Assembly (NCBI RefSeq): GCF_056746865.1
Contig: NZ_CM163382.1
Length of the DNA stretch: 64,000 nucleotides
Strand: one strand, 5' to 3'
This document shows, one piece after another, positions 7,870 through 63,233 of the stretch. Made by a program: the position numbers and the translations under genes. Each line of letters begins with the position of its first letter. Within the stretch, counting starts at the first letter, position 1. The notes under the pieces were generated by a model. That model searched no databases and was not told the origin of the DNA. It saw only the letters and a list, made by a program, of their open reading frames with translations.

Positions 7870-9573
7870 CGTGTGATTGTTAAACGACCCGTCTCGGCCA
7901 GTCTGGCCCGGGCCTTTTTTTACATTGTGCTGCTGTCGATTCTTTCCACGGGTATCGCTCTGCTAACTCTGGCGAGCAGTTTGCGCGACGCTGAGGCTAT
8001 CAATATTGCCGGATCGCTGCGTATGCAGAGTTACCGCCTGGGCTACGACTTGCAAAGTGGCAGTCCACAACTCAATGCACATCGCCAGTTATTTCAGCAG
8101 GCACTGCATTCACCGGTATTAACCAATCTCAACGTCTGGTATGTGCCAGAAGCAGTAAAAACCCGCTATGCGCATCTGAATGCCAACTGGCTGGAGATGA
8201 ATAATCGGCTCAGCAAGGGCGATTTACCGTGGTATCAGGCCAATATTAATAATTATGTTAATCAGATAGACCTGTTCGTACTGGCTTTACAGCACTACGC
8301 TGAACGCAAAATGCTGCTGGTGGTGGCGATTTCCCTGGCTGGCGGCATCGGTATTTTCACGCTGGTCTTTTTTACTTTGCGCCGCATACGCCATCAGGTG
8401 GTTGCCCCGCTGAATCAGCTGGTTACCGCCAGTCAGCGTATTGAACACGGGCAGTTCGACTCGCCGCCGCTGGATACCAGCCTGCCGAATGAGCTTGGCC
8501 TGCTTGCCAAAACCTTTAACCAGATGTCGAGCGAGCTGCATAAATTGTACCGTTCGCTGGAGGCGTCAGTAGAAGAAAAGACCCGCGATCTCCACGAGGC
8601 CAAGCGTCGCCTGGAGGTGTTGTATCAGTGTTCGCAGGCGCTGAACACCAGCCAGATTGATGTGCATTGTTTCCGCCATATTTTGCAGATTGTGCGCGAC
8701 AACGAAGCGGCTGAATATCTGGAGTTAAATGTCGGTGAAAACTGGCGGATTAGCGAAGGGCAACCAAACCTGGAATTGCCGATGCAGATTTTACCGGTGA
8801 CAATGCAAGAGACGGTTTACGGCGAACTGCACTGGCAAAATAGTCACGTTTCATCATCAGAACCGCTGCTTAACAGTGTTTCGTCGATGCTGGGACGCGG
8901 TTTGTACTTTAATCAGGCGCAGAAGCATTTTCAGCAGTTATTGTTGATGGAAGAACGTGCGACCATCGCCCGCGAATTGCACGACTCGCTGGCTCAGGTA
9001 CTTTCTTACTTACGTATCCAGTTGACGTTACTGAAGCGTTCGATACCGGAAGATAACGCCACCGCACAAAGTATCATGGCCGATTTTTCCCAGGCGTTGA
9101 ATGATGCTTATCGGCAGTTACGCGAGCTGTTAACTACTTTCCGCCTGACGCTGCAGCAGGCAGATCTCCCCTCCGCGTTGAGGGAAATGCTGGATACGTT
9201 ACAAAATCAAACCAGCGCTAAACTGACCCTCGACTGCCGCCTGCCAACCCTGGCGCTGGATGCGCAAATGCAGGTGCATTTGTTGCAAATTATTCGCGAA
9301 GCGGTGCTGAATGCGATGAAGCACGCCAACGCCAGCGAAATCGCCGTTAGCTGCGTCACCGCGCCGGACGGCAATCACACAGTCTATATTCGCGACAACG
9401 GGATTGGCATCGGTGAACCGAAAGAACCCGAAGGCCATTATGGTCTGAATATCATGCGCGAACGCGCGGAAAGATTGGGTGGGACGCTGACTTTTTCACA
9501 ACCTTCCGGCGGCGGCACGTTAGTGAGTATTAGCTTTCGCTCCGCGGAGGGTGAGGAAAGTCAGCTGATGTAA
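7870..9573 (+). CDS. narQ: nitrate/nitrite sensor histidine kinase NarQ
   Basis: ORF 7858-9573; start placed at GTG 7870 (MIVKRPVSASLARAFFYIV...); HAMP domain and histidine-kinase H-box (ELHDSLAQ) present. Start codon choice +/- 4 codons uncertain. Confidence 0.9.
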   Translation, partial: RVIVKRPVSASLARAFFYIVLLSILSTGIALLTLASSLRDAEAINIAGSLRMQSYRLGYDLQSGSPQLNAHRQLFQQALHSPVLTNLNVWYVPEAVKTRYAHLNANWLEMNNRLSKGDLPWYQANINNYVNQIDLFVLALQHYAERKMLLVVAISLAGGIGIFTLVFFTLRRIRHQVVAPLNQLVTASQRIEHGQFDSPPLDTSLPNELGLLAKTFNQMSSELHKLYRSLEASVEEKTRDLHEAKRRLEVLYQCSQALNTSQIDVHCFRHILQIVRDNEAAEYLELNVGENWRISEGQPNLELPMQILPVTMQETVYGELHWQNSHVSSSEPLLNSVSSMLGRGLYFNQAQKHFQQLLLMEERATIARELHDSLAQVLSYLRIQLTLLKRSIPEDNATAQSIMADFSQALNDAYRQLRELLTTFRLTLQQADLPSALREMLDTLQNQTSAKLTLDCRLPTLALDAQMQVHLLQIIREAVLNAMKHANASEIAVSCVTAPDGNHTVYIRDNGIGIGEPKEPEGHYGLNIMRERAERLGGTLTFSQPSGGGTLVSISFRSAEGEESQLM

Positions 9574-22018: not shown

Positions 22019-22591
22019 TTGACACTGTCATCGCAACATTATCTGGTGATCACTGCGTTGGGTGCCGATCGCCCTGGAATTGTGAACACCATCACCCGTC
22101 ATGTCAGTAGTTGCGGCTGTAATATTGAAGACAGTCGCCTGGCGATGCTGGGAGAAGAGTTCACGTTTATCATGCTGCTTTCCGGTTCATGGAATGCCAT
22201 TACTCTGATTGAATCAACGTTACCGTTGAAAGGTGCCGAGCTGGATCTTTTAATCGTGATGAAGCGCACGACGGCGCGTCCGCGTCCGCCAATGCCAGCA
22301 TCTGTCTGGGTTCAGGTCGATGTGGCAGACTCCCCGCATTTAATTGAACGCTTCACAGCACTTTTCGACGCGCATCATATGAACATTGCGGAGCTGGTGT
22401 CGCGCACGCAACCTGCTGAAAATGAACGGGCTGCGCAGTTGCATATTCAGATAACCGCCCACAGCCCCGCATCTGCGGACGCAGCAAATATTGAGCAAGC
22501 GTTCAAAGCCCTATGTACAGAACTCAATGCACAAGGCAGTATTAACGTCGTCAATTATTCCCAACATGATGAACAGGATGGAGTTAAGTAA
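22019..22591 (+). CDS. gcvR: glycine cleavage system transcriptional repressor GcvR
   Basis: ORF 21953-22591; start placed at TTG 22019 so the product begins (M)TLSSQHYLVITALGADRPGIV... (190 aa, ACT domains); the preceding in-frame ATG adds an implausible extension. Confidence 0.85.
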   Translation: MTLSSQHYLVITALGADRPGIVNTITRHVSSCGCNIEDSRLAMLGEEFTFIMLLSGSWNAITLIESTLPLKGAELDLLIVMKRTTARPRPPMPASVWVQVDVADSPHLIERFTALFDAHHMNIAELVSRTQPAENERAAQLHIQITAHSPASADAANIEQAFKALCTELNAQGSINVVNYSQHDEQDGVK

Positions 22592-29029: not shown

Positions 29030-30610
29030 ATGAGTTATTCTGTGATGTTCGCTTTACTCCTGCTCACGCCGCTGCTTTTTTCGCTGCTCTGTTTTGCCTG
29101 CCGGAAACGGGGGCACTCTGCGACTCGCACGGTGACAGTACTACATGGCTTAGGGATCACACTGCTGCTGATTCTGGCACTGTGGGTGGTCCAAACTGCC
29201 GCTGATGCGGGAGAAATATTCGCTGCGGGACTGTGGCTTCACATTGATGGTCTGGGCGGTTTGTTCCTCGCCATTCTTGGTGTGATTGGCTTTCTCACCG
29301 GTGTTTACTCGATTGGCTACATGCGTCATGAAGTGGCACACGGCGAGCTTTCACCCGTTACGCTGTGCGATTACTACGGTTTCTTCCATCTGTTTTTGTT
29401 CACCATGCTGCTGGTTGTTACCAGCAATAACCTGATTGTGATGTGGGCGGCAATCGAAGCCACCACCTTAAGCTCGGCGTTTCTGGTAGGCATTTACGGT
29501 CAGCGTTCATCGCTGGAAGCTGCATGGAAGTACATCATTATTTGTACTGTTGGTGTCGCTTTTGGTCTGTTCGGTACCGTGCTGGTATACGCCAACGCCG
29601 CCAGCGTTATGCCGCAGGCAGAAATGGCGATATTCTGGAGCGAGGTTCTTAAGCAATCGTCCTTGCTTGACCCAACATTAATGCTGTTGGCCTTTGTGTT
29701 TGTGCTAATTGGCTTTGGCACCAAAACCGGGCTTTTTCCCATGCACGCCTGGCTGCCGGATGCTCACAGTGAAGCGCCGAGTCCGGTCAGCGCCCTGCTC
29801 TCCGCCGTATTGCTGAACTGCGCGCTGTTGGTGCTTATTCGCTATTACATCATTATTTGCCAGGCCATCGGCAGCGATTTCCCCAACCGGTTGTTGCTCA
29901 TCTTCGGCATGTTGTCGGTTGCCGTGGCGGCATTTTTCATTCTGGTACAGCGGGACATTAAGCGTCTGCTGGCGTACTCCAGCGTGGAGAACATGGGACT
30001 GGTCGCGGTGGCGTTAGGCATTGGCGGGCCGCTGGGAATTTTTGCCGCGCTGCTGCACACCTTAAACCACAGTCTGGCAAAAACGCTGTTGTTCTGCGGT
30101 TCCGGCAATGTACTGCTCAAGTACGGCACGCGCGATCTCAACGTCGTCTGTGGGATGCTCAAAATCATGCCATTTACCGCCGTGTTGTTTGGCGGCGGTG
30201 CGCTGGCGCTGGCCGGGATGCCGCCCTTCAACATTTTTCTTAGCGAATTTATGACCGTTACCGCCGGACTGGCACGTAATCACCTGCTGATTATCGTCCT
30301 GCTGTTATTGCTGTTAACGCTGGTGCTGGCGGGCCTGGTACGGATGGCTGCGCGGGTGTTAATGGCGAAACCGCCGCAGGCCGTTAACCGGGGTGAACTT
30401 GGCTGGTTGACCACCTCGCCAATGGTGATTCTGCTGGTCATGATGCTGGCGATGGGAACGCATATTCCACAACCTGTCATCAGGATCCTGGCAGGCGCTT
30501 CCACTATAGTCCTCTCAGGGACGCACGACCTGCCTGCACAACGTAGCACCTGGCATGATTTTTTGCCTTCAGGCACCGCATCTGTTTCGGAGAAACACAG
30601 TGAACGTTAA
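29030..30610 (+). CDS. hyfF: hydrogenase-4 component F (NuoN/antiporter-like membrane subunit)
   Basis: 526-aa polytopic membrane ORF; length matches HyfF. Confidence 0.9.
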
Positions 30611-32315
30611 TTCATCGTCAAATCGTGGCGAAGCGATTCTCGCCGCCCTGAAAACGCAGTTCCCCGGCGCGGTGCTGGATGAAGAGCGACAAACGCCTGA
30701 ACAGGTCACCATTACGGTGAAAATCAATCTGCTGCCTGACGTTGTGCATTATCTTTATTATCAACATGATGGCTGGCTTCCAGTCCTGTTTGGCAACGAC
30801 GAGCGGACACTTAACGGTCATTACGCGGTTTATTATGCCCTTTCTATGGAAGGGGCCGAAAAATGCTGGATCGTGGTGAAGGCACTGGTCGATGCCGACA
30901 GTCGGGAGTTTCCGTCAGTCACACCGCGCGTCCCTGCCGCGGTCTGGGGCGAGCGAGAAATTCGCGATATGTACGGGCTGATTCCGGTTGGCCTGCCGGA
31001 TCAGCGTCGGCTGGTGTTGCCCGATGACTGGCCGGAAGATATGCATCCGCTGCGCAAAGACGCGATGGATTATCGACTGCGCCCAGAACCGACGACTGAT
31101 ACCGAAACGTATCCGTTTATCAACGAGGGCAACAGCGATGCGCGGGTGATCCCTGTCGGCCCGCTGCATATCACCTCCGATGAACCAGGTCACTTCCGCT
31201 TGTTTGTGGATGGCGAGCAAATTGTCGATGCTGATTACCGCCTGTTTTATGTCCATCGCGGCATGGAGAAACTGGCAGAAACGCGGATGGGCTACAACGA
31301 AGTGACCTTCTTATCCGACCGCGTGTGTGGGATTTGCGGTTTTGCCCACAGTGTGGCCTATACCAACTCGGTTGAAAATGCACTTGGGATTGAGGTGCCG
31401 CAACGAGCGCATACTATTCGCTCGATTCTGCTGGAAGTCGAACGGCTACACAGTCATTTGCTCAACCTTGGTCTCTCCTGCCATTTTGTTGGTTTTGATA
31501 CCGGCTTTATGCAATTTTTCCGCGTGCGGGAAAAGTCGATGACAATGGCGGAATTGCTGACCGGGTCGCGTAAAACCTACGGTCTGAATCTGATTGGTGG
31601 TGTTCGCCGCGATATTCTCAAAGAGCAACGTCTGCAAACGCTGAAACTGGTGCGCGAGATGCGAGCCGACGTGTCGGAGCTGGTAGAGATGCTGCTTGCC
31701 ACGCCGAATATGGAACAACGCACTCAGGGCATTGGCATTCTCGACCGACAAATCGCCCGTGATTATAGCCCCGTAGGGCCGCTGATCCGCGGCAGTGGTT
31801 TTGCCCGTGATTTGCGCTTTGATCACCCCTACGCCGACTACGGCAATATTCCCAAAACGCTGTTTACCTTTACCGGCGGCGATGTCTTCTCCCGCGTGAT
31901 GGTCCGTGTAAAAGAGACGTTTGATTCGCTGGCAATGCTGGAATTTGCCCTCGACAACATGCCAGATACCCCACTGCTGACCGAAGGCTTTAGCTATAAA
32001 CCTCACGCATTCGCGCTGGGCTTTGTTGAAGCGCCACGTGGTGAAGACGTGCACTGGAGCATGCTCGGTGATAACCAAAAATTGTTCCGCTGGCGCTGTC
32101 GTGCCGCCACCTACGCCAACTGGCCAGTGCTACGTTACATGCTGCGCGGCAATACCGTTTCTGACGCACCGCTGATTATCGGTAGCCTTGATCCCTGCTA
32201 CTCCTGTACCGACCGTGTGACGCTGGTTGATGTGCGCAAGCGCCAGTCAAAAACCGTGCCGTATAAAGAGATCGAACGCTACGGCATTGATCGTAACCGT
32301 TCGCCGCTGAAGTAA
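30600..32315 (+). CDS. hyfG: hydrogenase-4 large ([NiFe] catalytic) subunit
   Basis: ORF 30555-32315; start placed at GTG 30600 ((M)[17 protein letters not shown]...), overlapping the hyfF 3' end by 11 nt; N-terminal [10 protein letters not shown] and C-terminal DPCYSC [NiFe] ligand motifs. Exact start uncertain. Confidence 0.85.
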
Positions 32316-40097: not shown

Positions 40098-40127
40098 GAA
40101 GTGCTCCATCGCTAGTTGAAGCACATT

Positions 40128-40164
40128 GCCGGATGCGACGCTTGCCGCGTCTTATCCGGCCGAC
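40128..40164. repeat. REP palindromic unit between yfgD and hda
   Basis: tgccggatgcgacgcttgccgcgtcttatccggccgac matches the REP consensus. Confidence 0.7.
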
Positions 40165-40202
40165 GAATACTATGGGTGCATTTCCGACAATAAACGTCTT
40201 GT

Positions 40203-40904
40203 CTACAGTTTCAGAATTTCTTTCACAAACGGAATGGTCAGCTTACGTTGCGCGGTAATCGACGCACGATCCAACTGATCCAACGTCATAAATAACGTGC
40301 GCATTTCTCTGTCGAGCCGCTTCAGCAAGAAACGCCCCACATCTTCCGGCAGTTCAAAACCACGCAAACGCGCGCGTAACTGTAGCGCCTGCAACTTATC
40401 TTCATCAGAAAGTGGCTGCAATTTGTAGATCTGCCCCCAGTCGAGACGCGACGCGAGATCCGGTAATCCAAGATTCAACTGCCGCGGTGGACGATCGCCG
40501 GTGATTAACAACCGTGTTTTGCCCGATTCCAGAATTCGATTGTAGAGATCGAAAATCGCCATCTCCCACAACTCATCGCCTGCAATACACTCAATGTTGT
40601 CGATACAGACCAGCGACAAATGCTCCATACCGTCGAGCACTTCCGGAACAAACCAGGTGCGTTTATCCAGCGGGACATAGCCCACCGCATCGCCACGCTG
40701 CGACAATTCCGCGCAAGCCGCGTGCAGCAGATGGCTGCGCCCCGCGCCTTCGCGTGCCCAGAGATAGATGTAACCGCTATGTTCCTGACGCAGCACGTTT
40801 TGCAGCGCGGCCAGTAAAGAGGAGTTATCCCCCGGCCAGAAACTTGCAAAGGTTTCGTCGTCAGGAAGATAAAGTGGCAAAGAGAGCTGTGCCGGTGTGT
40901 TCAG
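40203..40904 (-). CDS. hda: DnaA regulatory inactivator Hda (DnaA-related AAA+ protein)
   Basis: ORF 40203-40949; start placed at CTG 40904 so the product begins (M)[18 protein letters not shown]... (233 aa), following the documented non-AUG (CUG) start of E. coli hda. Confidence 0.85.
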
Positions 40905-40998
40905 AGATACCTCAACCAGGATTTCACAAAATCGCGAGAAGTTTACCACAGAATCCCATGATGTTTGAACCGGGCAGCAACACTGCCCGGTCGGTACA

Positions 40999-42288
40999 TT
41001 ATTTGTCTGTTATATCCGCGTCTTCTGCGTCCAGCACCACTTCTTCAGGGCGCAGCACACTAATCATTTTGAAGATCAAACTTAAGCCGATACCGACGAT
41101 GGTCGCCAGCGCCATACCTTTCAGCTCCGCCGCGCCGATGTTTACCTTCGCGCCACTGACACCGATGATCAAAATCACGGAAGTCAGGATCAGGTTCTGT
41201 GCTTTGTTGTAATCCACTTTCGATTCGATCAAAACACGAATACCGGAAGCACCGATGACACCATAAAGCAGCAGCGAAACGCCGCCCATCACCGGCAATG
41301 GGATCATCTGGATAGCAGCAGCCAGTTTACCGACGCAGGAAAGCAGGATAGCGAAAATCGTCGCCCCGCCGATAACCCAGGTACTGTAAACACGGGTGAT
41401 CGCCATCACGCCAATGTTTTCCCCGTAGGTGGTGTTTGGCGTGGAGCCAAAGAAGCCGGAGATCACGGTCGACAAGCCGTTAGCAAACATCGAACGGTGC
41501 AGACCTGGATCGCGCAGCAGATCTTTTTTGACGATATTAGCCGTTACCACCAGGTGCCCTACGTGTTCGGCAATAACCACTAACGCCGCTGGCAGAATAG
41601 TCAGAATGGCAAACCACTCGAAGCGCGGCGTATAGAGGGTTGGCAGCGCAAACCAGTGAGCATTAATAATCGGCGTGGTATCGACAATTCCCATTGCGAA
41701 AGAGAGCGCGTAACCCACCAGCACGCCAATTAAAATCGGGATAATTGCCAGGAAACCACGAAACAGCACGGAACCTAAAACCGTGACTGCCAGGGTGGTA
41801 ATGGAGATGATGATGGTTTTGGAGTCTGGCGTTTGCCCTTCAGCCGGGAGTAAACCTGCCATACCGGCAGCTACGCCCGCCAGCTCCAGACCGATGACGG
41901 CAACGATTGCGCCCATTGCCGCAGGTGGAAACAGCACGTCCAGCCAGCCGGTCCCCGCTTTCTTCACGATAAAAGAAACCAGGCAGAACAGCACGCCGCA
42001 CATAATAAAGCCGCCCAGCGCGACTTCATACCCTAACGGCAACAGTAACAATACCGGTGAAATAAAGGCAAAGCTGGAACCAAGATAAGCCGGGATTTTC
42101 CCTTTACAGATGAAGAGATACAGCAGCGTTCCTATACCGTTAAATAACAGTACAGTCGCCGGGTTAATATGAAATAAGACGGGCACCAGGACGGTTGCAC
42201 CAAACATGGCGAACAAATGTTGCAAACTAAGCGGGATTGTCTGTAAAAGTGGCGGTCTTTCACTCACCCCGATAGCACGGCGCGTCAT
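40999..42288 (-). CDS. uraA: uracil:proton symporter UraA
   Basis: ORF 40999-42330; start placed at ATG 42288 ([24 protein letters not shown]...), 429 aa; NCS2 family. Confidence 0.95.
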
Positions 42289-43306: not shown

Positions 43307-44361
<1,055 letters not shown>

Positions 44362-53068: not shown

Positions 53069-53073
53069 TGCGC
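53069..53073. repeat. IS2 target-site duplication, left copy (TGCGC)
   Basis: 5-bp TGCGC immediately left of the IS2 left inverted repeat; identical pentamer immediately right of IS2. Confidence 0.8.
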
Positions 53074-53164
53074 TAGACTGGCCCCCTGAATCTCCAGACA
53101 ACCAATATCACTTAAATAAGTGATAGTCTTAATACTAGTTTTTAGACTAGTCATTGGAGAGCAG

Positions 53165-53530
53165 ATGATTGATGTCTTAGGACCGGAGAAACGCAGACGG
53201 CGTACTACACAGGAAAAGATCGCTATTGTTCAGCAGAGTTTTGAACCGGGAATGACGGTCTCCCTTGTTGCCCGGCAACACGGTGTGGCAGCCAGCCAGT
53301 TATTTCTCTGGCGCAAGCAATACCAGGAGGGAAGTCTTACTGCTGTGGCCGCAGGAGAGCAGGTCGTTCCTGCCTCTGAACTTGCTGCTGCCATGAAGCA
53401 GATTAAAGAACTCCAGCGCCTGCTCGGCAAAAAAACGATGGAAAATGAACTCCTTAAAGAAGCCGTTGAATACGGGCGTGCAAAAAAGTGGATAGCGCAC
53501 GCGCCCTTATTGCCCGGGGATGGGGAGTAA
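53165..53530 (+). CDS. insC: IS2 transposase OrfA (InsC; HTH DNA-binding component)
   Basis: ORF 53120-53530; start placed at ATG 53165 ([24 protein letters not shown]...), 121 aa. Confidence 0.9.
53482..53488 (+). other. IS2 programmed -1 ribosomal frameshift slippery site (A6G) in the insC/insD overlap
   Basis: AAAAAAG heptamer inside the 43-nt overlap of insC and insD; IS3-family OrfAB fusions are made by -1 frameshifting at such sites. Confidence 0.6.
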
Positions 53531-54393
53531 GCTTAGTCAGCCGTTGTCTCCGGGTGTCGCGTGCGCAGTTGCACGTCATTCTCAGACGAACCGATGACTG
53601 GAAAGATGGTCGCCGCAGCCGTCACTCAGATGATACGGATGTGCTTCTCCGTATACACCATGTTATCGGAGAGCTGCCCACGTATGGTTATCGTCGGGTA
53701 TGGGCGCTGCTTCGCAGACAGGCCGAACTTGATGGTATGCCTGCGATCAATGCCAAACGTGTTTACCGGATCATGCGCCAGAATGCGCTGTTGCTTGAGC
53801 GAAAAACCGCTGTACCGCCATCGAAACGGGCACATACTGGCAAAGTGGCCGTGAAAGAAAGCAATCAACGATGGTGCTCTGACGGGTTCGAGTTCCGCTG
53901 TGATAACGGAGAAAAACTGCGAGTCACGTTCGCGCTGGACTGCTGTGACCGTGAGGCACTGCACTGGGCAGTCACTACGGGCGGCTTCGACAGTGAAACA
54001 GTACAGGACGTAATGCTGGGAGCGGTGGAACGCCGCTTCGGCAACGAGCTTCCGGCGTCTCCAGTAGAGTGGCTGACGGATAATGGTTCATGCTACCGGG
54101 CTAATGAAACACGGCAGTTTGCCCGGATGTTGGGGCTTGAACCGAAGAACACGGCGGTGCGGAGTCCGGAGAGTAACGGCATAGCAGAGAGCTTCGTGAA
54201 AACGATAAAGCGTGACTACATCAGTATCATGCCTAAACCAGACGGGTTAACGGCAGCAAAGAACCTTGCAGAGGCGTTCGAGCATTATAACGAATGGCAT
54301 CCGCATAGTGCACTGGGTTATCGCTCGCCACGGGAATATCTACGGCAGCGGGCCAGTAATGGGTTAAGTGATAACAGGTGTCTGGAAATATAG
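53488..54393 (+). CDS. insD: IS2 transposase OrfB (InsD; DDE integrase-like catalytic component)
   Basis: 301-aa ORF ([23 protein letters not shown]...); rve-type integrase core. Confidence 0.9.
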
Positions 54394-54404
54394 GGGCAAA
54401 TCCA

Positions 54405-54409
54405 TGCGC
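54405..54409. repeat. IS2 target-site duplication, right copy (TGCGC)
   Basis: TGCGC immediately right of the IS2 right end. Confidence 0.8.
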
Positions 54410-54476
54410 CTATAAGGCTCTCTTACCAGCCGCGCCCTAACAGGCGCACACGATCTGACATTTGCATCCAACTTCG

Positions 54477-54935
54477 TTACTTACGGCCCGTAAACGGGCT
54501 GCCCGGATAGGGAATCGATAACTGCTCTCCCATTTTATCCTCTTCAAGCTGGTGCTTTATGTAATCCTGTATCTTCGCCGTGTTCTTACCCACTGTATCG
54601 ACGTAGTACCCTCTGCACCAGAACTCCCTGTTCCTGTATTTGAATTTCAAATCACCAAACTGCTCGTAAAGCATCAGACTGCTTTTCCCTTTCAGATATC
54701 CCATAAACCCGGATACGCTCATTTTAGGCGGGATCTCCACAAGCATATGGATATGATCTGCACAGCATTCAGCTTCCAGAATCCGTACGCTTTTCCACTC
54801 ACACAGCTTTCTCAAAATACTGCCTATTGCTCTACGCTTCTCTCTGTAGAACACCTGTCTTCGGTATTTTGGCGCAAAAACTATGTGATATTTACAGTTC
54901 CATCGGGTGTGCGCTAAGCTCTTTTCGTTCCCCAT
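54477..54935 (-). CDS. tnpA: IS200 transposase TnpA (Y1/HuH single-strand transposase)
   Basis: ORF 54477-54986; start placed at ATG 54935 preceded by GGGGG (MGNEKSLAHTRWNCKYHIVFAPKYRRQVFY...), 152 aa; HuH motif (HIHMLV) and catalytic Tyr region. Confidence 0.9.
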   Translation of the reverse strand: MGNEKSLAHTRWNCKYHIVFAPKYRRQVFYREKRRAIGSILRKLCEWKSVRILEAECCADHIHMLVEIPPKMSVSGFMGYLKGKSSLMLYEQFGDLKFKYRNREFWCRGYYVDTVGKNTAKIQDYIKHQLEEDKMGEQLSIPYPGSPFTGRK

Positions 54936-54940
54936 TGGGA

Positions 54941-55010
54941 CCCCCTTTTGATTTCTTGTTTGACACTTGCAGTTGCCAGACCGCAAGGTGTTTTAACAAA
55001 TCAAAAGGGG
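54941..55010 (-). promoter_or_regulatory. IS200 5'-UTR stem-loop that sequesters the tnpA ribosome-binding site
   Basis: CCCCTTTTGATTT (54941-54953) and AAATCAAAAGGGG (54998-55010) are exact reverse complements; the arm next to the ATG contains the Shine-Dalgarno sequence. Confidence 0.6.
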
Positions 55011-55045
55011 TTTTAATAACTGGCTCAAAGCTGAAAGCTTTCCGG

Positions 55046-55068
55046 AACCCCCAGCCTAGCTGGGGGTT
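55046..55068. other. IS200 left-end hairpin (palindrome near the element end)
   Basis: aaCCCCCAGC-cta-GCTGGGGGtt, 23 nt, about 10 bp inside the inferred IS200 left boundary. Confidence 0.5.
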
Positions 55069-55074
55069 TTCTGT

Positions 55075-55108
55075 GCACAAAAAACCCTCTGTAGTAACAG
55101 AGGGTTTT
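55075..55108 (-). terminator. rho-independent terminator of the prophage lysis cassette (minus strand)
   Basis: Minus strand reads AAAACCCTCTG-ttacta-CAGAGGGTTTTTTGTG: 11-bp stem plus T6, 127 bp downstream of the Rz stop and abutting the IS200 end. Confidence 0.6.
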
Positions 55109-55234
55109 GTTCATTCATAGTGCAGGGTCAAATCATTCCCACTCAATTGTTTACGACAATCATAACCAATTGAGTGATAACATTTTTCCAAAACTTAATT
55201 TTTCTAGTACCGTTTTATATACCGTCACCGGAAA

Positions 55235-55732
55235 TCAGTGCCACGATTTTTGCTTCTTCAGTGAATCGTATTGCTGTTCGCAGGATTCTCCTGCAATCCG
55301 ATACTTTTCAGCCTCAGCTGCTGTTGCGTTGTAAACTCGATTGCTTTCTTCAAGCATGTCGGCGAGCACACCGATGACCTTGCTGGCTGGCGTGCCAGTG
55401 GGGAAAGATCCGGTATAGTGTTCGGCGAGTCGCTTGGTTTTGTCAAGCTCGGCGCGCAGGCTGTCAGCAGCGGCATTAGCATGCTCAGCATCAACACGCG
55501 CCACATCGATACGGGATTGTGCTTCACGTTCAATTTGTGTTTTCTCCTGATCACGTTGTGACCTGGCCTTATCATCAGCCTGTTTCTGATCTTCCTGTGC
55601 CTGCGCATACCCGGCATCGTACTGGCGACTGCCGTGTATATTCCAGGCAACCACTCCGACGGTAAACAGAGCAGCAAGAATCACCACGATAAGCAGTTGT
55701 TTCCAATATGCTTTTACGAATGCCCAGATCAT
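55235..55732 (-). CDS. prophage i-spanin (Rz-like inner-membrane spanin)
   Basis: 165-aa ORF with one N-terminal TM helix then a charged coiled-coil body; start overlaps the endolysin stop (ATGA); last gene of the lysis cassette. Confidence 0.7.
55258..55506 (-). CDS. prophage o-spanin (Rz1-like outer-membrane lipoprotein) embedded in the +1 frame of the Rz-like gene
   Basis: ORF 55258-55677 in an alternate frame inside Rz; from ATG 55506 it encodes [17 protein letters not shown]... with lipobox LTA-C followed by a proline-rich short mature region; start codon choice tentative. Confidence 0.6.
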   Translation of the reverse strand: MWRVLMLSMLMPLLTACAPSLTKPSDSPNTIPDLSPLARQPARSSVCSPTCLKKAIEFTTQQQLRLKSIGLQENPANSNTIH

Positions 55733-56358
55733 ATAGCCAGCACCTTACTGGCAGTGACGTACCGCGCGCGCCGGTCGTCGATGCCGTTCCGGCCACCATT
55801 GATAATCAGAGTTACACGTGCAATATCACCGGTATACTTCATGCATCCTTTGCTGGCAAAGAACCACGCCGCGCTACGAGCCGCGTATTCGTCCTGCGCC
55901 AGCAGTTCAGGATTCTCCAGCAAGTCCACTTTCAAGCCGTTTCCGCAGTCACGATAGTTATTCAAACCGGTAATCTGGATAAGTCCGCGACCTCGGTAAT
56001 TCCAGCCATCGCCGGGGGCATTGTTCCCCATGCGTTTGCTGTACACCAGATTGGCAATCGCTCTCTGGCGCTCAGGTGGCAATGGTGGTTCACCAGCACG
56101 GCGCCCCAATGCGTTGGCCTGTCCCTGAGTGAGACGCCCAGCCCGAACGAAGTTAGCCAGTCCGCTGACGCTGTAGTTGAAATTTTCCTGCAACCGGGTG
56201 AAACCTCCAGACTCATGCCCGACCTGAGCAATAAACATTGCCTGATCTTCTGGTTTGCTGATACCAAACTCTTTCATCGCAGAAGTTATATGCGAGAACC
56301 AGCGTGCGGCAAGCGCCTCGCTAATACCAGCAGCTCGCTGGAATTGTTTAATCTCCAT
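55729..56358 (-). CDS. prophage endolysin, glycoside hydrolase family 19 (chitinase-like lysozyme)
   Basis: ORF 55729-56523; start placed at ATG 56358 preceded by GAGGT ([21 protein letters not shown]...), 209 aa; GH19/COG3179-like motifs ([21 protein letters not shown]). Confidence 0.8.
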
Positions 56359-56656
56359 GTTTAGACCTCGATACTTTGAAAATTTGAACGACGTTACCGC
56401 GCGTTTTAATAACCGCAGCGAGCATGACAGCGTTGATAATGACCTCAGATAAATCCACAGCCATTGGCGTGCGGAACCAGATTGCATAGGCAACACGAAC
56501 CGGAATACTGGCCGCAGCAACAATCAGGAAATAAGCAAGCCACCCCCCCCATCTTCGATGTTGAGATCCGTTACGCCGGAATGTGACAACACGAATTGCT
56601 ATGCCAGTACAAATAACTGCATTGGTGATAAGTAAAAACAGGTCATGCGTTACCAT
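56348..56656 (-). CDS. small membrane protein in lysis cassette (putative holin or antiholin, 2-3 TM)
   Basis: 102-aa hydrophobic ORF directly upstream of the endolysin gene and overlapping it by 11 nt; function assigned by position only. Confidence 0.5.
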
Positions 56657-57059
56657 CGTCTTTTCTCCCCGGAATTAACTCGCGTGGATTATCGGAACGG
56701 TGATAGAGCCAGATACCAATTCGCACTGCGACAATTGCTGATACGAATGCGCCAGCAGAGAAAACAATCCCTTTCTCGAACGAGTCCTGCGTGATGGTAG
56801 GGATCAGGCTGGCTATGCCGATAAGAATTGATGCTGCTGGTTTGTAAAAAAGAAGGCCGCAGAGAAAGCTAAGCATCGACAAAAGCACACGACGACGAAT
56901 GGGATACTCTACCGCAGAGGTAACAAAAATTACCGCTCCAGCCAAAGACCCCAAAGCAACCTCGGGAGGAACTCCTGCTATCACCGCCGCCAGAGAAGTC
57001 ATGCTAAGCCACTGATTCAAAGAATCACTGGTTGTCTGAATTGACATGATAAACACCAT
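56643..57059 (-). CDS. putative holin (multi-TM small membrane protein), first gene of lysis cassette
   Basis: 138-aa ORF with 3-4 predicted TM segments and a basic C-terminal tail; two Met codons within the first five (M1, M5); overlaps the next gene by 14 nt. Confidence 0.55.
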   Translation of the reverse strand: MVFIMSIQTTSDSLNQWLSMTSLAAVIAGVPPEVALGSLAGAVIFVTSAVEYPIRRRVLLSMLSFLCGLLFYKPAASILIGIASLIPTITQDSFEKGIVFSAGAFVSAIVAVRIGIWLYHRSDNPRELIPGRKDDGNA

Positions 57060-57187
57060 TTATTTCACATAAACAACTCCATTAAATAAATGTTTATCAT
57101 ACACAATAAACCATTTATGGATAATTATTACTCGTGATTTTTATGATTATTCGCGCATTTTTCTATCATTTTTATCCAGTGTGCCGT

Positions 57188-57211
57188 AAAACCACGTCCT
57201 TAAGGGCGTGG
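57188..57211 (-). terminator. hairpin terminator downstream of the tail fiber gene
   Basis: Minus strand: CCACGCCC-ttaa-GGACGTGG followed by TTTTAC; about 160 bp after the tail fiber stop. Confidence 0.5.
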
Positions 57212-57236
57212 ATGATGTCAACTGATGATGTCAACT
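57211..57236. repeat. perfect tandem direct repeat 2 x 13 bp (GATGATGTCAACT) in the tail fiber - holin intergenic region
   Basis: gatgatgtcaact gatgatgtcaact read directly from the sequence at 57211-57223 and 57224-57236. Confidence 0.7.
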
Positions 57237-57372
57237 ATTGGCTGGCTTTGACTGATATTGCAGGAGTTGTTGGATAAGATTTAAGTGACCGTCAAAGCGG
57301 TCACTTATGAGAAAAGGAAGTTAGACAAAGTGGCAAACAGGCTCATTGATGGCTACGTCAATGACCAAGGTT

Positions 57373-59775
57373 TCATTCAGACTCCAGCAACTCTATCCTG
57401 GCGAGAAGCGCTTCATATTTATCAAGTAATCGAGAGTAGTTCCTTCGTTGCATTGCAGCTTCCATTACCAACATTTCTTCATAACGAATGCCGTAACGGG
57501 AACCAGCTTCTATAGCAGGAGTGATTACCTCACCGGTTTCATCATCTATGACGGCAGGAGTGTCACCCCATTCATCATAACAGATGAAACCAAAGCGATG
57601 AGCATCAAGACCATGCCTTTCGAATGCCTCCACGTACCGTTGAGCAATGGCGCCGAAGTGCCAGCGGGCGCCATCAGCGCCTTTTTCTTTAATCCTATCC
57701 AGATACTTATACTGGACTAGCTGAACCTCTTCTGCGGCATCGAGAATGGCATCAGTCATTAGTAATGGGTCTGATTTGCAAATGGCATCTGACGTGATAG
57801 TGAACGCCGTTTGAGTGAATCCACCAGACCACGGAAACGAACTTGCCCCGCAAGGATAGGTATTTGCCGTGGCAGGACGTATTTGCTTCACAGCAAATAC
57901 GTGCGACGTCATTTCTGCTGTACCAGAACCCGTAACGCCGGGATCTCCACCAGAGACACGTAAAATCCCTGTAGGGACAGATGAGTCCGTCGATGAATAA
58001 AAGCGAATCTGCTGTGCTTCTGCAACACCAGGGTTACATAGCTTAATAGCTTTAGTTGTGAACGCATTAGTATCCGTATCAAATATCCAGTATCTGTTGT
58101 TTGAACCACCATCTATAATAACGTTCGCAAGAGATACACCAACTCGCTGTATATTAGAAATATTGTTAGCATTAGTACCAGCAGTTAACTGAATACCCCT
58201 TGTGCAATTATTTACACGCGAGTTACTAATAGTATTATTAGCAGCAAATCTAGTGCCAGCGGTATTTCCTGTCAGGAGAGTATGCGTAGTGTCCTTACTG
58301 AAGCCTGTCAATAACACCTCATTATTAGTGAACGTACCGTACTGAGCACATGATTTAAAACCGATATAAGGTGTGGTTAAATCCTCAGGAATACCATTCC
58401 ATACCATACAAAAGTTATCTGTAATTACACTATGGTTTCCTCCATTGTTAGACAAATCACCCAACTCTACAGCACTTATGGAAGTATTGAAGTGGTTATT
58501 TGTAACCTGGAACAGGTTACCAACATTGTTTTCAGAAACAACTCCGCGGCGACCAGCAATGATATGGTTACCGAAAACCACAACACCTTCGGTATCGTCA
58601 TGCGCGTACATGAAGGTGTCGAAGTTCTGATAAGAACCATTGACAATATTGATATTCTTTGTTGAGTACAGGTCGAATATTTTACCCATTCGATATGCTG
58701 GTACAGATGTTCCTCCACCAGTTACGTTAACGCCGTCAAATACACACTGACCAGCTCTGCTTAGCTTAAAGACAGTATCAAAAGAGGATTGAGTACCAGC
58801 ATCATTTGACACATCCAGGTCACGAACGATAAGTTGTCGGGCGTATTCGATTCCCCCTGTCCCTAAAAACGTAAGCGCAGTACCCTGAAGTTGCCCGGTA
58901 GCTTTTATCGTGAAATTACGTAAACCAACAGGTTTTCTTACTACAGTCGTACCCGAGTTATCAATGATAAGACCATATCCAGCAGCAAATTTTATTCCGC
59001 ATGTAGCCATGCTTACGCCAAAAACATCACTATAAAAATTAGTTACTGAGATGTCGCTTGAGCAGTTGTATATACGACGAAGCTTAATATCTAGACCAGT
59101 TTCCTTTGCTGCAGTAAAGGCATTGATCAGTGCCAAGGTATCATCAGCATCACCTCCAACAGCGCCAAAATCCTCAGGAGTGAGTGATTCCCTCATTTTA
59201 TCCTGGAACGTTCGGTATACTGCCCCATAACCATACTGAATAAACCAACCAAAACCACCAACAACCCCGGCGATTGCAGCATCGACATAATTACGCATTG
59301 AGCGATTATTTACAGCGTCCTGCTCAAGTGATGGATCTGCAAGGTTAGAAATTCTGTTTTGCTTTGCATCGTAATATTTTGCAAGCAAAGATGGTTTCAT
59401 CAATGCACGTCTGAACCACCCAAAACATTGCTGGATCAGCATCGTCAGGTAGTCAAAGGCATCTTCATGCACTTCGGGAAAAAACTTTCCCTGATTGCGA
59501 AGGTCTGTCTCCTGTACTACATCAAGCACACGATCTATCGTAATTCGCCATCCAGTAGCAAGCGGAGACGGAAGAACCACAGAACCGCCACTATAAGTGC
59601 CCGCCCCAGTTACCGTATAACCGGTATCCAGAACCAATTCTGTTACGTTCCCGTTCAGGTCAGACACCTGAACAACCAGGTCTGATTTTCTGAAAATTCG
59701 AAAAGTATACGGAAACGATGTCGTAACGCCGTTACCTGTGTATTCGTTGTGGTCAACTTCGGTTGAGACCGTCAT
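57373..59775 (-). CDS. prophage tail fiber/tailspike (N-terminal virion-attachment domain, central beta-helix-like domain, C-terminal intramolecular chaperone domain)
   Basis: 800-aa ORF preceded by GGAG; N-terminus has the tail-fiber motif ...NRISNLADPSLEQDAVN... (compare T7 gp17 RIVNLANAVDDRDAV); middle is Gly/Asn/Thr-rich repeat typical of beta-helix tailspikes; C-terminal ~130 aa resemble S74-type chaperone domains. Confidence 0.8.
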   Translation of the reverse strand: MTVSTEVDHNEYTGNGVTTSFPYTFRIFRKSDLVVQVSDLNGNVTELVLDTGYTVTGAGTYSGGSVVLPSPLATGWRITIDRVLDVVQETDLRNQGKFFPEVHEDAFDYLTMLIQQCFGWFRRALMKPSLLAKYYDAKQNRISNLADPSLEQDAVNNRSMRNYVDAAIAGVVGGFGWFIQYGYGAVYRTFQDKMRESLTPEDFGAVGGDADDTLALINAFTAAKETGLDIKLRRIYNCSSDISVTNFYSDVFGVSMATCGIKFAAGYGLIIDNSGTTVVRKPVGLRNFTIKATGQLQGTALTFLGTGGIEYARQLIVRDLDVSNDAGTQSSFDTVFKLSRAGQCVFDGVNVTGGGTSVPAYRMGKIFDLYSTKNINIVNGSYQNFDTFMYAHDDTEGVVVFGNHIIAGRRGVVSENNVGNLFQVTNNHFNTSISAVELGDLSNNGGNHSVITDNFCMVWNGIPEDLTTPYIGFKSCAQYGTFTNNEVLLTGFSKDTTHTLLTGNTAGTRFAANNTISNSRVNNCTRGIQLTAGTNANNISNIQRVGVSLANVIIDGGSNNRYWIFDTDTNAFTTKAIKLCNPGVAEAQQIRFYSSTDSSVPTGILRVSGGDPGVTGSGTAEMTSHVFAVKQIRPATANTYPCGASSFPWSGGFTQTAFTITSDAICKSDPLLMTDAILDAAEEVQLVQYKYLDRIKEKGADGARWHFGAIAQRYVEAFERHGLDAHRFGFICYDEWGDTPAVIDDETGEVITPAIEAGSRYGIRYEEMLVMEAAMQRRNYSRLLDKYEALLARIELLESE

Positions 59776-59860
59776 GTTAAATCTCCAGATAGTCGCAGCA
59801 CCCGTTGCGCCGCATATCTGGTTATTCTATTACCTGAAAAACCACATATGGATAGAAAGG

Positions 59861-59876
59861 CTGTAAATACGAATAG
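59861..59876. promoter_or_regulatory. weaker second LexA-like box (CTGT-N8-ATAG)
   Basis: CTGTaaatacgaATAG, one mismatch in the distal ACAG half-site, about 70 bp upstream of the strong box. Confidence 0.3.
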
Positions 59877-59931
59877 ATATTACCTTTCAGGTAATTTGCA
59901 AAACGTGCTGGATAGCAAACAAATTATTTGC

Positions 59932-59951
59932 TACTGTATAAATATACAGTT
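59932..59951 (+). promoter_or_regulatory. LexA (SOS) box immediately upstream of the small plus-strand ORF
   Basis: tACTGTATAAATATACAGtt matches the LexA consensus TACTGTATATATATACAGTA at 18/20 with CTGT-N8-ACAG intact; ends 6 bp before ATG 59957. Confidence 0.7.
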
Positions 59952-59956
59952 ATTGC

Positions 59957-60229
59957 ATGGAGAAGATTAAGATGCAGCAGTATCACTATCCACTGGAAGA
60001 CGGATTTACCGAAAGGATTCACACGCCGGGAGGCGTCAGGTCACTGGTGGAGGGATCGCACTTGATGAAATTACTCCGGGATCTCGATAAGGATGGATTT
60101 AATGTCGATGGCCCACTTGCCGAACTGACTGCACTGATTAACTACGTCACCAGCTCACAGATGTCTATGCGGGATCTGCAAACACATCTCGACTATTGTG
60201 CCGAACAATTACGAAAACAAACCCGGTAA
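59957..60229 (+). CDS. small SOS-box-associated prophage protein of unknown function (90 aa, or 85 aa from ATG 59972 which has the better GGAGA Shine-Dalgarno)
   Basis: ORF in track; soluble, charged, no TM segment; LexA box overlaps its promoter region; convergent with the 98-aa membrane protein gene. Confidence 0.55.
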   Translation: MEKIKMQQYHYPLEDGFTERIHTPGGVRSLVEGSHLMKLLRDLDKDGFNVDGPLAELTALINYVTSSQMSMRDLQTHLDYCAEQLRKQTR

Positions 60230-60235
60230 ATTTAA

Positions 60236-60273
60236 AGGCCGCAAGAGCGGCCTGTGACATGTCACGCTCTTTT
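60236..60273. terminator. bidirectional terminator between the convergent small genes
   Basis: GGCCGC-aaga-GCGGCC hairpin then GTGACATGTCAC palindrome and CTCTTTTTC; T-rich on both strands (tttaaattt on the minus side). Confidence 0.55.
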
Positions 60274-60558
60274 TCTGAATGATAGCCATTCGAAAAATGA
60301 TGACATTCCACCGCAGACAATAGCAAAGATGATCCCACCAAAGAAGAGAAGGCCAGCCTGCCACCACTCCCACCGCCATACATCCACAGCGCCAACCATA
60401 CCAACAATCGCTCCAACAAATGGAATATAGCTCACGATGAAAGCAATGGGGGCTGCAATTATCCAGTGCAATCCCCACCATGATTCAAGCCCAGCCATAA
60501 TTGCTGCCAACTGAAAAAGACCAACGACGATATAAACAATGAATCCTATAGCTTGCAT
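60262..60558 (-). CDS. small 3-TM inner-membrane protein of unknown function (moron; candidate superinfection-exclusion or conversion protein)
   Basis: 98-aa ORF with AGGTGA Shine-Dalgarno; three hydrophobic helices, Trp-rich loop (VDVWRWEWWQAG), basic C-terminus FRKRA. Confidence 0.6.
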   Translation of the reverse strand: MQAIGFIVYIVVGLFQLAAIMAGLESWWGLHWIIAAPIAFIVSYIPFVGAIVGMVGAVDVWRWEWWQAGLLFFGGIIFAIVCGGMSSFFEWLSFRKRA

Positions 60559-60570
60559 GTAGTCACCTAT

Positions 60571-60744
60571 TTACCCAGTAAAAATCAGAGGCCTCCCCTC
60601 AATAAGGCTTGCAACAAGAACTATTCCCTGCACAACAAAGATGAACCAGCAAATAGCTTGAGTCTGAGGGTTAAGAAAATATTTGTAGCGGTCAATAAAT
60701 AACAACCCACCAGAAATTATCACACTCAAAATAATTAAAAACAC
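60571..60744 (-). CDS. possible 57-aa two-TM membrane peptide (GTG start), translationally coupled to the upstream virion protein gene
   Basis: Not in ORF track (under 60 aa). GTG 60744 is preceded by AAGGAAG overlapping the 824-aa gene stop; product (M)FLIILSVIISGGLLFIDRYKYFLNPQTQAICWFIFVVQGIVLVASLIEGRPLIFTG; same frame as the upstream gene. Confidence 0.35.
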   Translation of the reverse strand: MFLIILSVIISGGLLFIDRYKYFLNPQTQAICWFIFVVQGIVLVASLIEGRPLIFTG

Positions 60745-60753
60745 AACACTTCC

Positions 60754-63228
60754 TTATTGCGGAGTGACATCCTGAGGTCGCCACCAGTATGTCTGGTTAA
60801 ACTCTTTCTTCGAACGTTGCTCCATTTTACGCAAATAGCCTGGTGAAAAATACTCCTGCATCTGGTTAAAGATCATATGATCGAGAGCCGCCTTTAAGTA
60901 CCAGAGATTCGCACCTGGCATCAAACCTTTCCCCAGCTTCACCAGATCACCACCAGTCTGCTCACTCTTCCCTTCCACAGCATTTAACGGTATGCCCTGA
61001 GCAATCTTCACTACGTCATCAACCAGACCAGCTACCGGGCCAAGCATCGACGCCAGCGCGCCGCTTCCGTACCTAGTGTGATCTGACAATAAAAAGTCAC
61101 CGTAAAGGCCAAGACCACCACCTTTCAGTAGAGCACCAAGCCAAAATTTAGCAGCATCTTCTCCTGTCATCTCGCGAGGATTACGACCAGACGCAAGGTC
61201 GTTAAGTTGCTGCGACAAAGCGCCAAGAATGGTCGTACTGGCAATAAACGTCGCAATATATGCCGCACGCCCACCAGCAGACGGCATACCCATAGCGCGT
61301 GACCAGTGACGCATAACCACCGAGATAGGGAACGATTTAAACAGGAAAACACTTCTCGTTAATTCACCTTTCCATGTTCCACGCTGAATACCAGAACCGG
61401 TTATCAGTTGCTCACGTGCTCCCGGTGTAATAACAGCCATATCAACTTCTTCAGTTACGGCACCGAGCAGTTTACGCATTGCCTCAAATTTCACGCGTTC
61501 AGGCTCACCAAGATGTTTAACTGCTGAATCAGGGATACGCATAATGCTTTCCGGTGTCAGCATCGTATTATTGCCGTTCCCCCAGTCCTCCTGTTGCGCC
61601 AGCTTCCATACGCTCCAGTCTGTGTCAGTAATCCCTTTGCTTTTCAGGATACGAAAATCAGAATCATCGAGGCTACGAAGGTCTGGTGTCCGTGACACTA
61701 CTTCTCCCAGGCTTCCCATCATGGTTACGCCATAGGCGCGCTTGTGCGCATCTGACCATGCTGTAAGCCCACTGGCACGCATTACCGCCGTTGCAGCCCA
61801 ACGAGACACAGACGGCCCCATATTATCCATCGCCCAGCGGTTAACGCTGCCAAGTAGAGATTCCATCGCCAGACCAGCGCGGCGCGCCCGCGCAAGTTCT
61901 GTACGGTTCGTTGGGTCCATAGCTTCAAGCTGGTTGCGGAATAACTGGTTCATTGGAAGGTTGGTAACCTTCGCAGACAGATACATGGTTCCAAGATCAG
62001 AGAACGATGACAGCAACGCGGATCCGAGTCTGCTGGCAACCAGCCAGTTGCGGATATTGTCAGACCATCGCGCGATGTGCGGATTCGCTACAGGCTGTGT
62101 CTTTCCGGAAATAAAATTGTACAGATTCTCTGTGTTGTTCGCCAGCCGCTCGACTTTACCGGTTTTACTCGGGTTAGCTGTTGCCGTTTCTGCCTTCACC
62201 TGATCAAGAAGAGAGCGGAAAACATGATCGGGGTTTGGGCCATATGTTTCCACCAGTGCAATATCTTTACTGATACCTTCAAGGTGACCGACCATGATTT
62301 CCCATAGAGAGCGATCGCCATAAAGTTGCTGATATTGCAGATAGGAATCTGCATCTTTGAAATGTATCTGTCGTGATGCATTACCACGGTTAGCACGTGC
62401 GCCGGAAATTCGCATTCCGGTATCAGTAAGCTTATTCAGCCCACCAGTAGCGATCGTGTTATAAGCCTCTCCAAGAAATGCAGACAACTCGGCATCGTTC
62501 ATCAGTTGTCCATCGGCTCGGGTATAATATTTGCGATCCAGCTTACCTATAACATCGCTAACCCATTTATCTTTTGATACCGCCCCAACCTTTTCCATAG
62601 AATGATGTTGAGGGATCCCCCAGTTTTCGAGATAGCCAATGTCCCCACCAGCATCATTAAACCGGCGGCGCAGCAGCTCTGTAACTTCTCTCCACGCCTT
62701 AGCACCTTTTCTTGCTTTAGCATTGCCAGTATTTTGCCCCCGCATTTCATATACCAGGTCACGTACGCCCGCTTCATCTTCAAACAGACCAAAAAAGCGA
62801 GGATCAACTGCTTCGAATGCCTCCTGCAATTGACTCAATGCATAATCACGGGTGGCTTTTGTTCTGGATTCAACAGAGAGGAAATTCGATTTACCGTCTG
62901 CATTAAAAGCAATAGTACGGTTAAGAGCGCCAAGTTTCCCATCAGCCCCTTGATAGCTATTGATAAATTTATCCAATCTCTGACGTGCGGCTATAGTGAG
63001 GGCCACACGACGTTTCTTTAATGCCGCTTCTCGCTGTAATTCTTCAGATGCCAATTGTGCTGCACGATACAACCGTTCTGATTCGGAAAGTTGTCGCCAC
63101 GACATCGGGTCATCACGAGCAATGGAGCGCATATTTCGATAAATGCGGTCTTCAATGTTCTGTATTTCTCGCGCCGTTAACGTGCGCTGCGCCGCCTGCT
63201 GGACCGCTTGTATACATTCCTGTCTCAT
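60754..63228 (-). CDS. large prophage virion protein, function unknown (putative internal virion / DNA-ejection protein by position)
   Basis: 824-aa ORF; N-terminal coiled-coil, Gly-rich C-terminal region; directly upstream of the tail fiber module; no catalytic motif recognised. Confidence 0.6.
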   Translation of the reverse strand: MRQECIQAVQQAAQRTLTAREIQNIEDRIYRNMRSIARDDPMSWRQLSESERLYRAAQLASEELQREAALKKRRVALTIAARQRLDKFINSYQGADGKLGALNRTIAFNADGKSNFLSVESRTKATRDYALSQLQEAFEAVDPRFFGLFEDEAGVRDLVYEMRGQNTGNAKARKGAKAWREVTELLRRRFNDAGGDIGYLENWGIPQHHSMEKVGAVSKDKWVSDVIGKLDRKYYTRADGQLMNDAELSAFLGEAYNTIATGGLNKLTDTGMRISGARANRGNASRQIHFKDADSYLQYQQLYGDRSLWEIMVGHLEGISKDIALVETYGPNPDHVFRSLLDQVKAETATANPSKTGKVERLANNTENLYNFISGKTQPVANPHIARWSDNIRNWLVASRLGSALLSSFSDLGTMYLSAKVTNLPMNQLFRNQLEAMDPTNRTELARARRAGLAMESLLGSVNRWAMDNMGPSVSRWAATAVMRASGLTAWSDAHKRAYGVTMMGSLGEVVSRTPDLRSLDDSDFRILKSKGITDTDWSVWKLAQQEDWGNGNNTMLTPESIMRIPDSAVKHLGEPERVKFEAMRKLLGAVTEEVDMAVITPGAREQLITGSGIQRGTWKGELTRSVFLFKSFPISVVMRHWSRAMGMPSAGGRAAYIATFIASTTILGALSQQLNDLASGRNPREMTGEDAAKFWLGALLKGGGLGLYGDFLLSDHTRYGSGALASMLGPVAGLVDDVVKIAQGIPLNAVEGKSEQTGGDLVKLGKGLMPGANLWYLKAALDHMIFNQMQEYFSPGYLRKMEQRSKKEFNQTYWWRPQDVTPQ

Positions 63229-63233
63229 TTAAT

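Follow-up and report, generated by a model that had tools for sequence, protein, structure and literature searches.

Where does translation of hda, a gene of replication control, begin? On the minus strand of the E. coli DNA analysed here (the window, a single stretch of 64,000 nucleotides), the longest open reading frame at this locus spans 40203-40949 and encodes 248 amino acids, exactly 15 codons more than the form that starts at an internal CTG. This strand reads ...TTGAGGTATCT CTG AAC ACA CCG GCA CAG CTC TCT TTG..., where the CTG is followed by the codons for NTPAQLSL. A preliminary description of the window had aligned the N-terminus MNTPAQLSL with a CTG at 40904, and this is borne out by the sequence, with the CTG at 40904-40902 and NTPAQLSL next to it. 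We conclude, with a probability of roughly 95%, that Hda (233 residues) is translated from CUG at 40904 and not from the GUG located 15 codons upstream.

The window follows the E. coli chromosome from maeB to yfgI and carries strain-specific DNA beyond. Its first 50 kb differ from strain 118UI (NZ_CP032515.1) by only three mismatches, and the region 2.578-2.628 Mb of K-12 MG1655 is collinear with it, from maeB via hyf, hda, purMN and ppk to pdeF. In the hda region, the coordinate in NC_000913.3 equals the window coordinate plus 2,577,872. The hda genes of K-12 and of the window share the start codon, the upstream region and the neighbours (uraA upstream, yfgD/arsC downstream); nothing relevant differs between them, the window being from another strain, with 118UI as the nearest. 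The identity to 118UI stops past window position 53073, just beyond yfgI, from where 118UI carries IS200 and prophage genes and the window (53074-64000) other DNA. Between the hda stop and arsC/yfgD, at about 40105-40200, lies a REP-like palindromic sequence (gccggataagacgcggcaagcgtcgcatccggc), which is probably the reason why a 1-kb query matched a median of three places per E. coli genome. The features discussed below are collected in Table 1.

Table 1. Positions in the window of the hda features and of the neighbouring non-ATG starts (SD, Shine-Dalgarno pairing in kcal/mol).
Feature	Position	Strand	Details
hda CDS	40203..40904	-	233 codons + TAG stop, CTG start; PGAP CDS in strain 118UI
CTG (CUG) initiation codon of hda	40902..40904	-	sequence, conservation, literature; K-12 2618776
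QLSLPL, beta-clamp-binding motif of Hda	40872..40889	-	codons 6-11 of the CTG-started protein
Shine-Dalgarno GAGGT	40909..40913	-	GAGG core 5 nt upstream of CTG; invariant in 81/81 Enterobacteriaceae sequences
In-frame extension of longest ORF (formerly annotated N-terminus), 45 nt	40905..40949	-	not coding
GTG, hda start annotated originally (2006)	40947..40949	-	K-12 2618821
TGnTAAACT, candidate extended -10 promoter element of hda	40940..40948	-	inferred from conservation; reads TGgTAAACT
GC-rich hairpin after uraA stop (CCGGGCAG...CTGCCCGG)	40968..40992	-	MFE -22.2 kcal/mol, z = -3.9
narQ GTG start	7873..7875	+	PGAP, K-12; SD -6.4 vs -3.3
gcvR TTG start	22019..22021	+	PGAP, K-12; SD -5.6 vs 0.0 for longer ORF
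hyfG GTG start	30600..30602	+	PGAP, K-12; SD -6.6 vs -1.5 for ATG 30555
purM GTG start	43325..43327	+	PGAP, K-12; SD -5.5 vs -0.2 for GTG 43310

The protein that follows from the CTG start is well defined. It is identical to the product of K-12 b2496 (NP_416991.2; 702 bp, CTG start), with no difference over 233 amino acids, and to the sequence of the solved E. coli Hda structure (PDB 5X06), whose deposited chain consists of a 20-residue tag followed by MNTPAQ.... The NCBIfam profile NF005982 ('DnaA inactivator Hda') gives a score of 474.8 bits (cut-off 268), and TIGR03420 one of 281.7 (cut-off 194.8). The N-terminal beta-clamp-binding motif of the family, QL[SP]LPL, is found at residues 6-11, and the motif is likewise numbered 6-11 in the paper describing the crystal structure, where it is given as essential for Hda function (PMC5397184). 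Residue 153 is the arginine finger of Box VII of the AAA+ domain (Arg153), and the Pfam domains PF00308 and PF22688 are recorded on Hda homologues. Judged by score, motif and arginine finger, the Hda of the window belongs with a full score to the Hda equivalog families. The identical K-12 protein has been shown to stimulate, together with the DNA-loaded clamp, the hydrolysis of DnaA-ATP, a process termed RIDA (PMC5397184).

The curated annotation places the start of hda at the same codon. Both the PGAP annotation of 118UI and curated MG1655 use the CTG and do not favour the upstream codons, which is the outcome that the preliminary description expected from a comparison with K-12. It had also referred to CUG initiation of hda as reported, and EcoGene 3.0 (PMC3531124) agrees, attributing the CUG N-terminus of Hda to Su'etsugu et al. 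2008. The GUG upstream is named in PMC3905854 as the initiation codon that was annotated originally. Ribosome profiling of initiation, proposed earlier as a check, has been published: the supplement of PMC4909307, based on tetracycline-inhibited ribosome profiling (TetRP), lists hda with a start that moved by 45 nt from the 2006 to the 2014 annotation, and its manual inspection assigns the hda signal to the 2014 (version 3) site, namely the CTG, rather than classing it as 'multiple'. The start at CTG is thus backed by three independent lines, namely the literature, TetRP and a comparison of 88 species, to which we turn now.

We compared the hda loci of 80 Enterobacteriaceae species from about 30 genera, with protein identities of 92-100%; 333 further Hda loci from a genome scan lie outside this set. 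A CTG was present at the aligned start in 80/80 of these species, in 7/7 other Enterobacterales species and in 88/88 species overall, counts that do not represent independent events since the compared species are related. Among the 31 columns in which leucine is invariant (81 sequences), codon 1 is the only one that keeps a single codon, while the remaining 30 use three to six different leucine codons, with CTG and TTG often alternating. Single-codon columns make up 3 of the 163 degenerate columns in which the amino acid is invariant. The alignment indicates a constraint on the CTG that goes further than coding for leucine would require. Moreover, not one of the 88 species has moved to TTG, which is one synonymous transition away, or to GTG or ATG, and this suggests that the weak codon itself is selected.

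The sequence around the CTG points in the same direction. The duplex of the Shine-Dalgarno sequence with the 3' end of 16S rRNA has a free energy of -6.9 kcal/mol before the CTG, compared with -4.0 kcal/mol before GTG 40949. Between the Shine-Dalgarno core and the CTG, the triplet at position -1 takes at least 12 forms (TCT, TTT, CAT, CTT, CCT, CGT, ATT and others), and from the alignment it appears to behave as an untranslated spacer would. On the 5' side of GAGGT, the sequence diverges and carries indels across the 80 species. An upstream in-frame ATG, GTG or TTG before a stop is absent in 46 of the 80 species, and an in-frame stop lies at most 15 codons upstream of the CTG in 60 of them. 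Without an upstream canonical start in these 46 species, the CTG alone can start a protein that keeps the conserved N-terminus. The signs of a CUG start that can be looked for in a sequence, namely the lack of a canonical alternative, a constraint at the nucleotide level and a Shine-Dalgarno sequence at a working distance, were thus all found at this locus.

Three other starts have to be weighed against the CUG. The first is dual initiation, in which the 233-residue protein from CUG would remain the main product and a minor isoform of 248 residues would be made from GTG 40949 on transcripts that read through from uraA. In its favour, E. coli and a few relatives have no stop in this frame, GUG by its nature initiates better than CUG (bioRxiv 10.1101/063800), and the hairpin between uraA and hda has no T-tract, which makes read-through conceivable. 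However, the extension is not conserved as a protein, TetRP assigned hda to a single site, and the 15 added residues would place the clamp motif farther from the terminus with no sign of use. We therefore consider a second isoform unlikely.

An even smaller probability falls to the 248-residue Hda from GTG 40949 as the only product, the form that was annotated originally and is still produced by gene callers that accept only ATG, GTG and TTG. The frame is open from this GTG in E. coli, a His-tagged protein designed from the earlier annotation reportedly showed activity in vitro (PMC3905854), and the form is abundant in automatic annotation, where cluster P0002 holds 3510 such sequences, drawn from Logan and ENA. 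Hda entries that come from NCBI have 233 amino acids. Against this start, only about 11 of the 80 species have a GTG at the corresponding offset, in frame and followed by an open frame, and in the 60 species mentioned above the frame is interrupted within the 15 codons. The extension is poorly conserved and carries indels, with the exception of the motif TGnTAAACT, and 13 of its 15 residues fall outside the NCBIfam profile. In addition, the Shine-Dalgarno pairing of the old start is weak, the TetRP signal lies at the CTG, and the curated annotation has moved away from the GTG.

Finally, a shorter Hda started 3' of the CTG, for example at TTG 40880 (codon 9) or GTG 40796 (codon 37), can practically be dismissed: the two codons are in frame and belong to the canonical alternative starts, and truncated forms of 225, 221 and 197-231 amino acids are found in databases, but codon 9 is TTG in 43, CTG in 37 and TTA in one of the 81 sequences and hence not a conserved start, neither codon is preceded by Shine-Dalgarno pairing (-1.7 and -1.5 kcal/mol, respectively), residues 1-8 are conserved as protein, and such starts would cut or delete the essential motif QLSLPL.

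With the CUG start as the preferred reading, one statement about the upstream region needs to be corrected. According to the preliminary description, the longest hda frame begins with an ATG and adds 15 residues to the N-terminus. The number of codons is right, whereas the start codon is the GTG at 40949; from the upstream stop (TAA, 41012) to the hda CTG the frame contains no ATG, and the one at 40959 belongs to another frame. An upstream ATG with 15 extra codons fits hyfG (ATG 30555), with which hda was probably conflated. Gene callers confined to ATG, GTG and TTG cannot find the start of hda, and the 248-residue form is still widespread in collections annotated automatically. The extra 15 residues precede the N-terminal clamp-binding motif, so that constructs made from the wrong start carry a non-native extension.

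Four neighbouring genes had also been listed as requiring GTG or TTG starts. For gcvR (TTG 22019), purM (GTG 43325) and hyfG (GTG 30600) the proposed positions are exact according to the sequence, PGAP and K-12. In the case of narQ, a GTG start is correct but had been placed at 7870, where the sequence reads CGT; the GTG is at 7873. All five genes of the list, including hda, belong there, yet the list is incomplete, as it missed yfgG (GTG 51418) and yfgH (GTG 51920). The GcvR protein of the window is the same as that of K-12, and positions 1-189 of the NCBIfam profile NF008612 align to its residues 1-189; NF008184 aligns to NarQ from residue 1. The GTG start of hyfG overlaps the end of hyfF by 11 nt. 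In all five genes, Shine-Dalgarno pairing is better for the annotated start (-5.5 to -6.9 kcal/mol) than for the alternative (0 to -4.0 kcal/mol). As near-cognate starts, the GTG and TTG codons of gcvR, purM, hyfG and narQ are of the ordinary kind, and a separate Shine-Dalgarno sequence precedes every one of them.

It had further been predicted that longest-ORF calling would give a wrong start for all five genes. This is true, since each has a longer ORF opening at an ATG, GTG or TTG further upstream, by which hda, gcvR, purM, hyfG and narQ would be extended by 15, 22, 5, 15 and 5 codons, respectively. It is also generic, as the same rule would lengthen a further 19 annotated genes of the collinear part, 18 of them started by ATG, the remaining one being tnpA, where the upstream TTG lies within CDS coordinates borrowed for tnpA. 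The 46 coding sequences of the collinear part comprise 39 with ATG, five with GTG (narQ, hyfG, purM, yfgG and yfgH), one with TTG (gcvR) and one with CTG (hda). Genome-wide, 83% of E. coli starts are AUG, 14% GUG and 3% UUG (bioRxiv 10.1101/063800). We considered an unusual cluster of non-ATG starts in the window and rejected it, because 7/46 (15%) corresponds to the genome-wide rate.

Apart from the slip of 3 nt in narQ, the five proposed starts match the curated annotation and are of use for annotation quality control. The CUG start of hda and the GUG and UUG starts of its four neighbours are already contained in the curated annotation and the literature, and nothing about them is new. Being annotated and published, they make a finding that is correct but ordinary.

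A length variant was seen in hyfG. HyfG has 571 amino acids in the window and 555 in K-12, where 48 bp (window 31755-31802), coding for 16 residues, are missing. A tandem duplication as the origin of the longer form was rejected, as the segment is no tandem repeat; K-12 carries a 48-bp deletion allele. Among 5426 complete E. coli genomes, 2179 have the full segment, about 2113 match the flank only (among them K-12 and HS) and about 1134 gave no match.

The single well-conserved block between the old GTG and the CTG (45 nt), and just upstream of it, is the motif TGnTAAACT. In the 81 sequences T40948, G40947, T40945, A40944, A40942, C40941 and T40940 are invariant. The pattern TGnTAnnnT occurs 33-39 nt upstream of the CTG in 88/88 species, with a chance expectation of about 0.02 per sequence, so that TG, T1, A2 and T6 of the sigma-70 extended -10 pattern are fixed in 88/88 species. 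The 88 species include Proteus, in which a gene other than uraA lies upstream. On the grounds of this conservation, we regard TGnTAAACT as a candidate sigma-70 extended -10 promoter of hda. A scan of 40850-41150 for consensus promoters and terminators called no site at a threshold of 9/12, and the candidate promoter has hexamer matches of 4/6 + 4/6. For hda, the TSS list of Kim 2012 contains only a TSS with two reads, 620 nt upstream and inside uraA; the Cappable-seq supplement gave no match when searched for the predicted hda coordinates, and a literature search found no published promoter of hda or between uraA and hda.

If the promoter is real, transcription would start near 40933 (about 2618805 in K-12), giving a leader of about 29 nt. 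The old GTG (40949-40947) would then lie upstream of the mRNA, and its TG would be the TG of the extended -10 element. This would account for the recurrence, in many genomes, of a GTG or ATG at this position, by which gene callers are misled. The strong hairpin that follows the uraA stop (40968-40992) has arms that are conserved across genera, and it does not show the T-tract expected of an intrinsic terminator. Its 3' arm abuts the place where a -35 element of the candidate promoter would be located. A putative DnaA box in the hda leader (TGTGAAATC) was rejected, since it agrees poorly with TGTGNATAA and shows no conservation in other genera.

These observations are compatible with the following sequence of events. 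The hda mRNA probably begins about 29 nt upstream of the CUG, at the conserved extended -10 promoter (TGnTAAACT). The invariant GAGG(U), 5 nt upstream, would set the 30S subunit with its P site over the CUG, and the initiator fMet-tRNA would read the CUG as a near-cognate codon, by which the clamp-binding motif QLSLPL would come to lie at residues 6-11 of Hda. In reporter assays, CUG initiation reached about 1-2% of that from AUG, with a range of 0.02-3% (bioRxiv 10.1101/063800). Such inefficiency may hold the synthesis of Hda low, which would suit a regulator needed in few copies, and the CUG may have been selected to keep Hda scarce. The invariance of the CUG in 88 species and its possible tie to scarce Hda are of modest interest for the control of replication.

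Beyond the Enterobacteriaceae, the locus looks similar. Yersinia, Erwinia, Pantoea, Hafnia, Dickeya, Xenorhabdus and Proteus resemble E. coli in having the CTG, the upstream GAGG and TGnTAnnnT, and the N-terminus is NTPAQLSL or a close variant (NTPSQLSL in Xenorhabdus, NMPSQLSL in Proteus). They differ in the codon at position -2: the seven genera read GAG GTG CTT CTG AAY, with GTG at -2, while in the 81 Enterobacteriaceae sequences this codon is GTA, GTC or GTT and never GTG. Outside the Enterobacteriaceae, Hda is annotated either in a 235-residue form from GTG (MLLNTP...) or in the 233-residue form from CTG, sometimes both in one species. The NCBIfam profile of Hda has 235 positions, of which the E. 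coli protein matches 3-235. The GTG at -2 lacks a separate Shine-Dalgarno sequence and forms the 3' end of GAGGUG, and for this reason we think that the CUG may well be the start there, too. If so, the 235-residue Hda would be annotated wrongly in Yersinia, Erwinia, Hafnia, Dickeya, Proteus and others.

Taken together, the data would fit a module shared by the whole order Enterobacterales, consisting of a TGnTAnnnT promoter, a leader of about 29 nt, GAGG(U) and CUG, and selected for a very low level of Hda; the CUG start would then be no peculiarity of E. coli. The old GTG would represent the TG of the promoter upstream of the transcript, and the 235-residue Hda proteins elsewhere would be misannotated. 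We give this wider proposal even odds.

Other starts of this kind are found in E. coli. The AUU start of infC is part of the autoregulatory loop of IF3. Unlike infC, the hda start has no known feedback loop. The widely cited preprint of Hecht et al. names no confirmed non-canonical starts of E. coli besides infC and pcnB and omits hda (bioRxiv 10.1101/063800). The hda start resembles those of infC and pcnB (AUU) as well as yfjD (CTG), all of which use a near-cognate codon and the initiator tRNA for translation at a low level.
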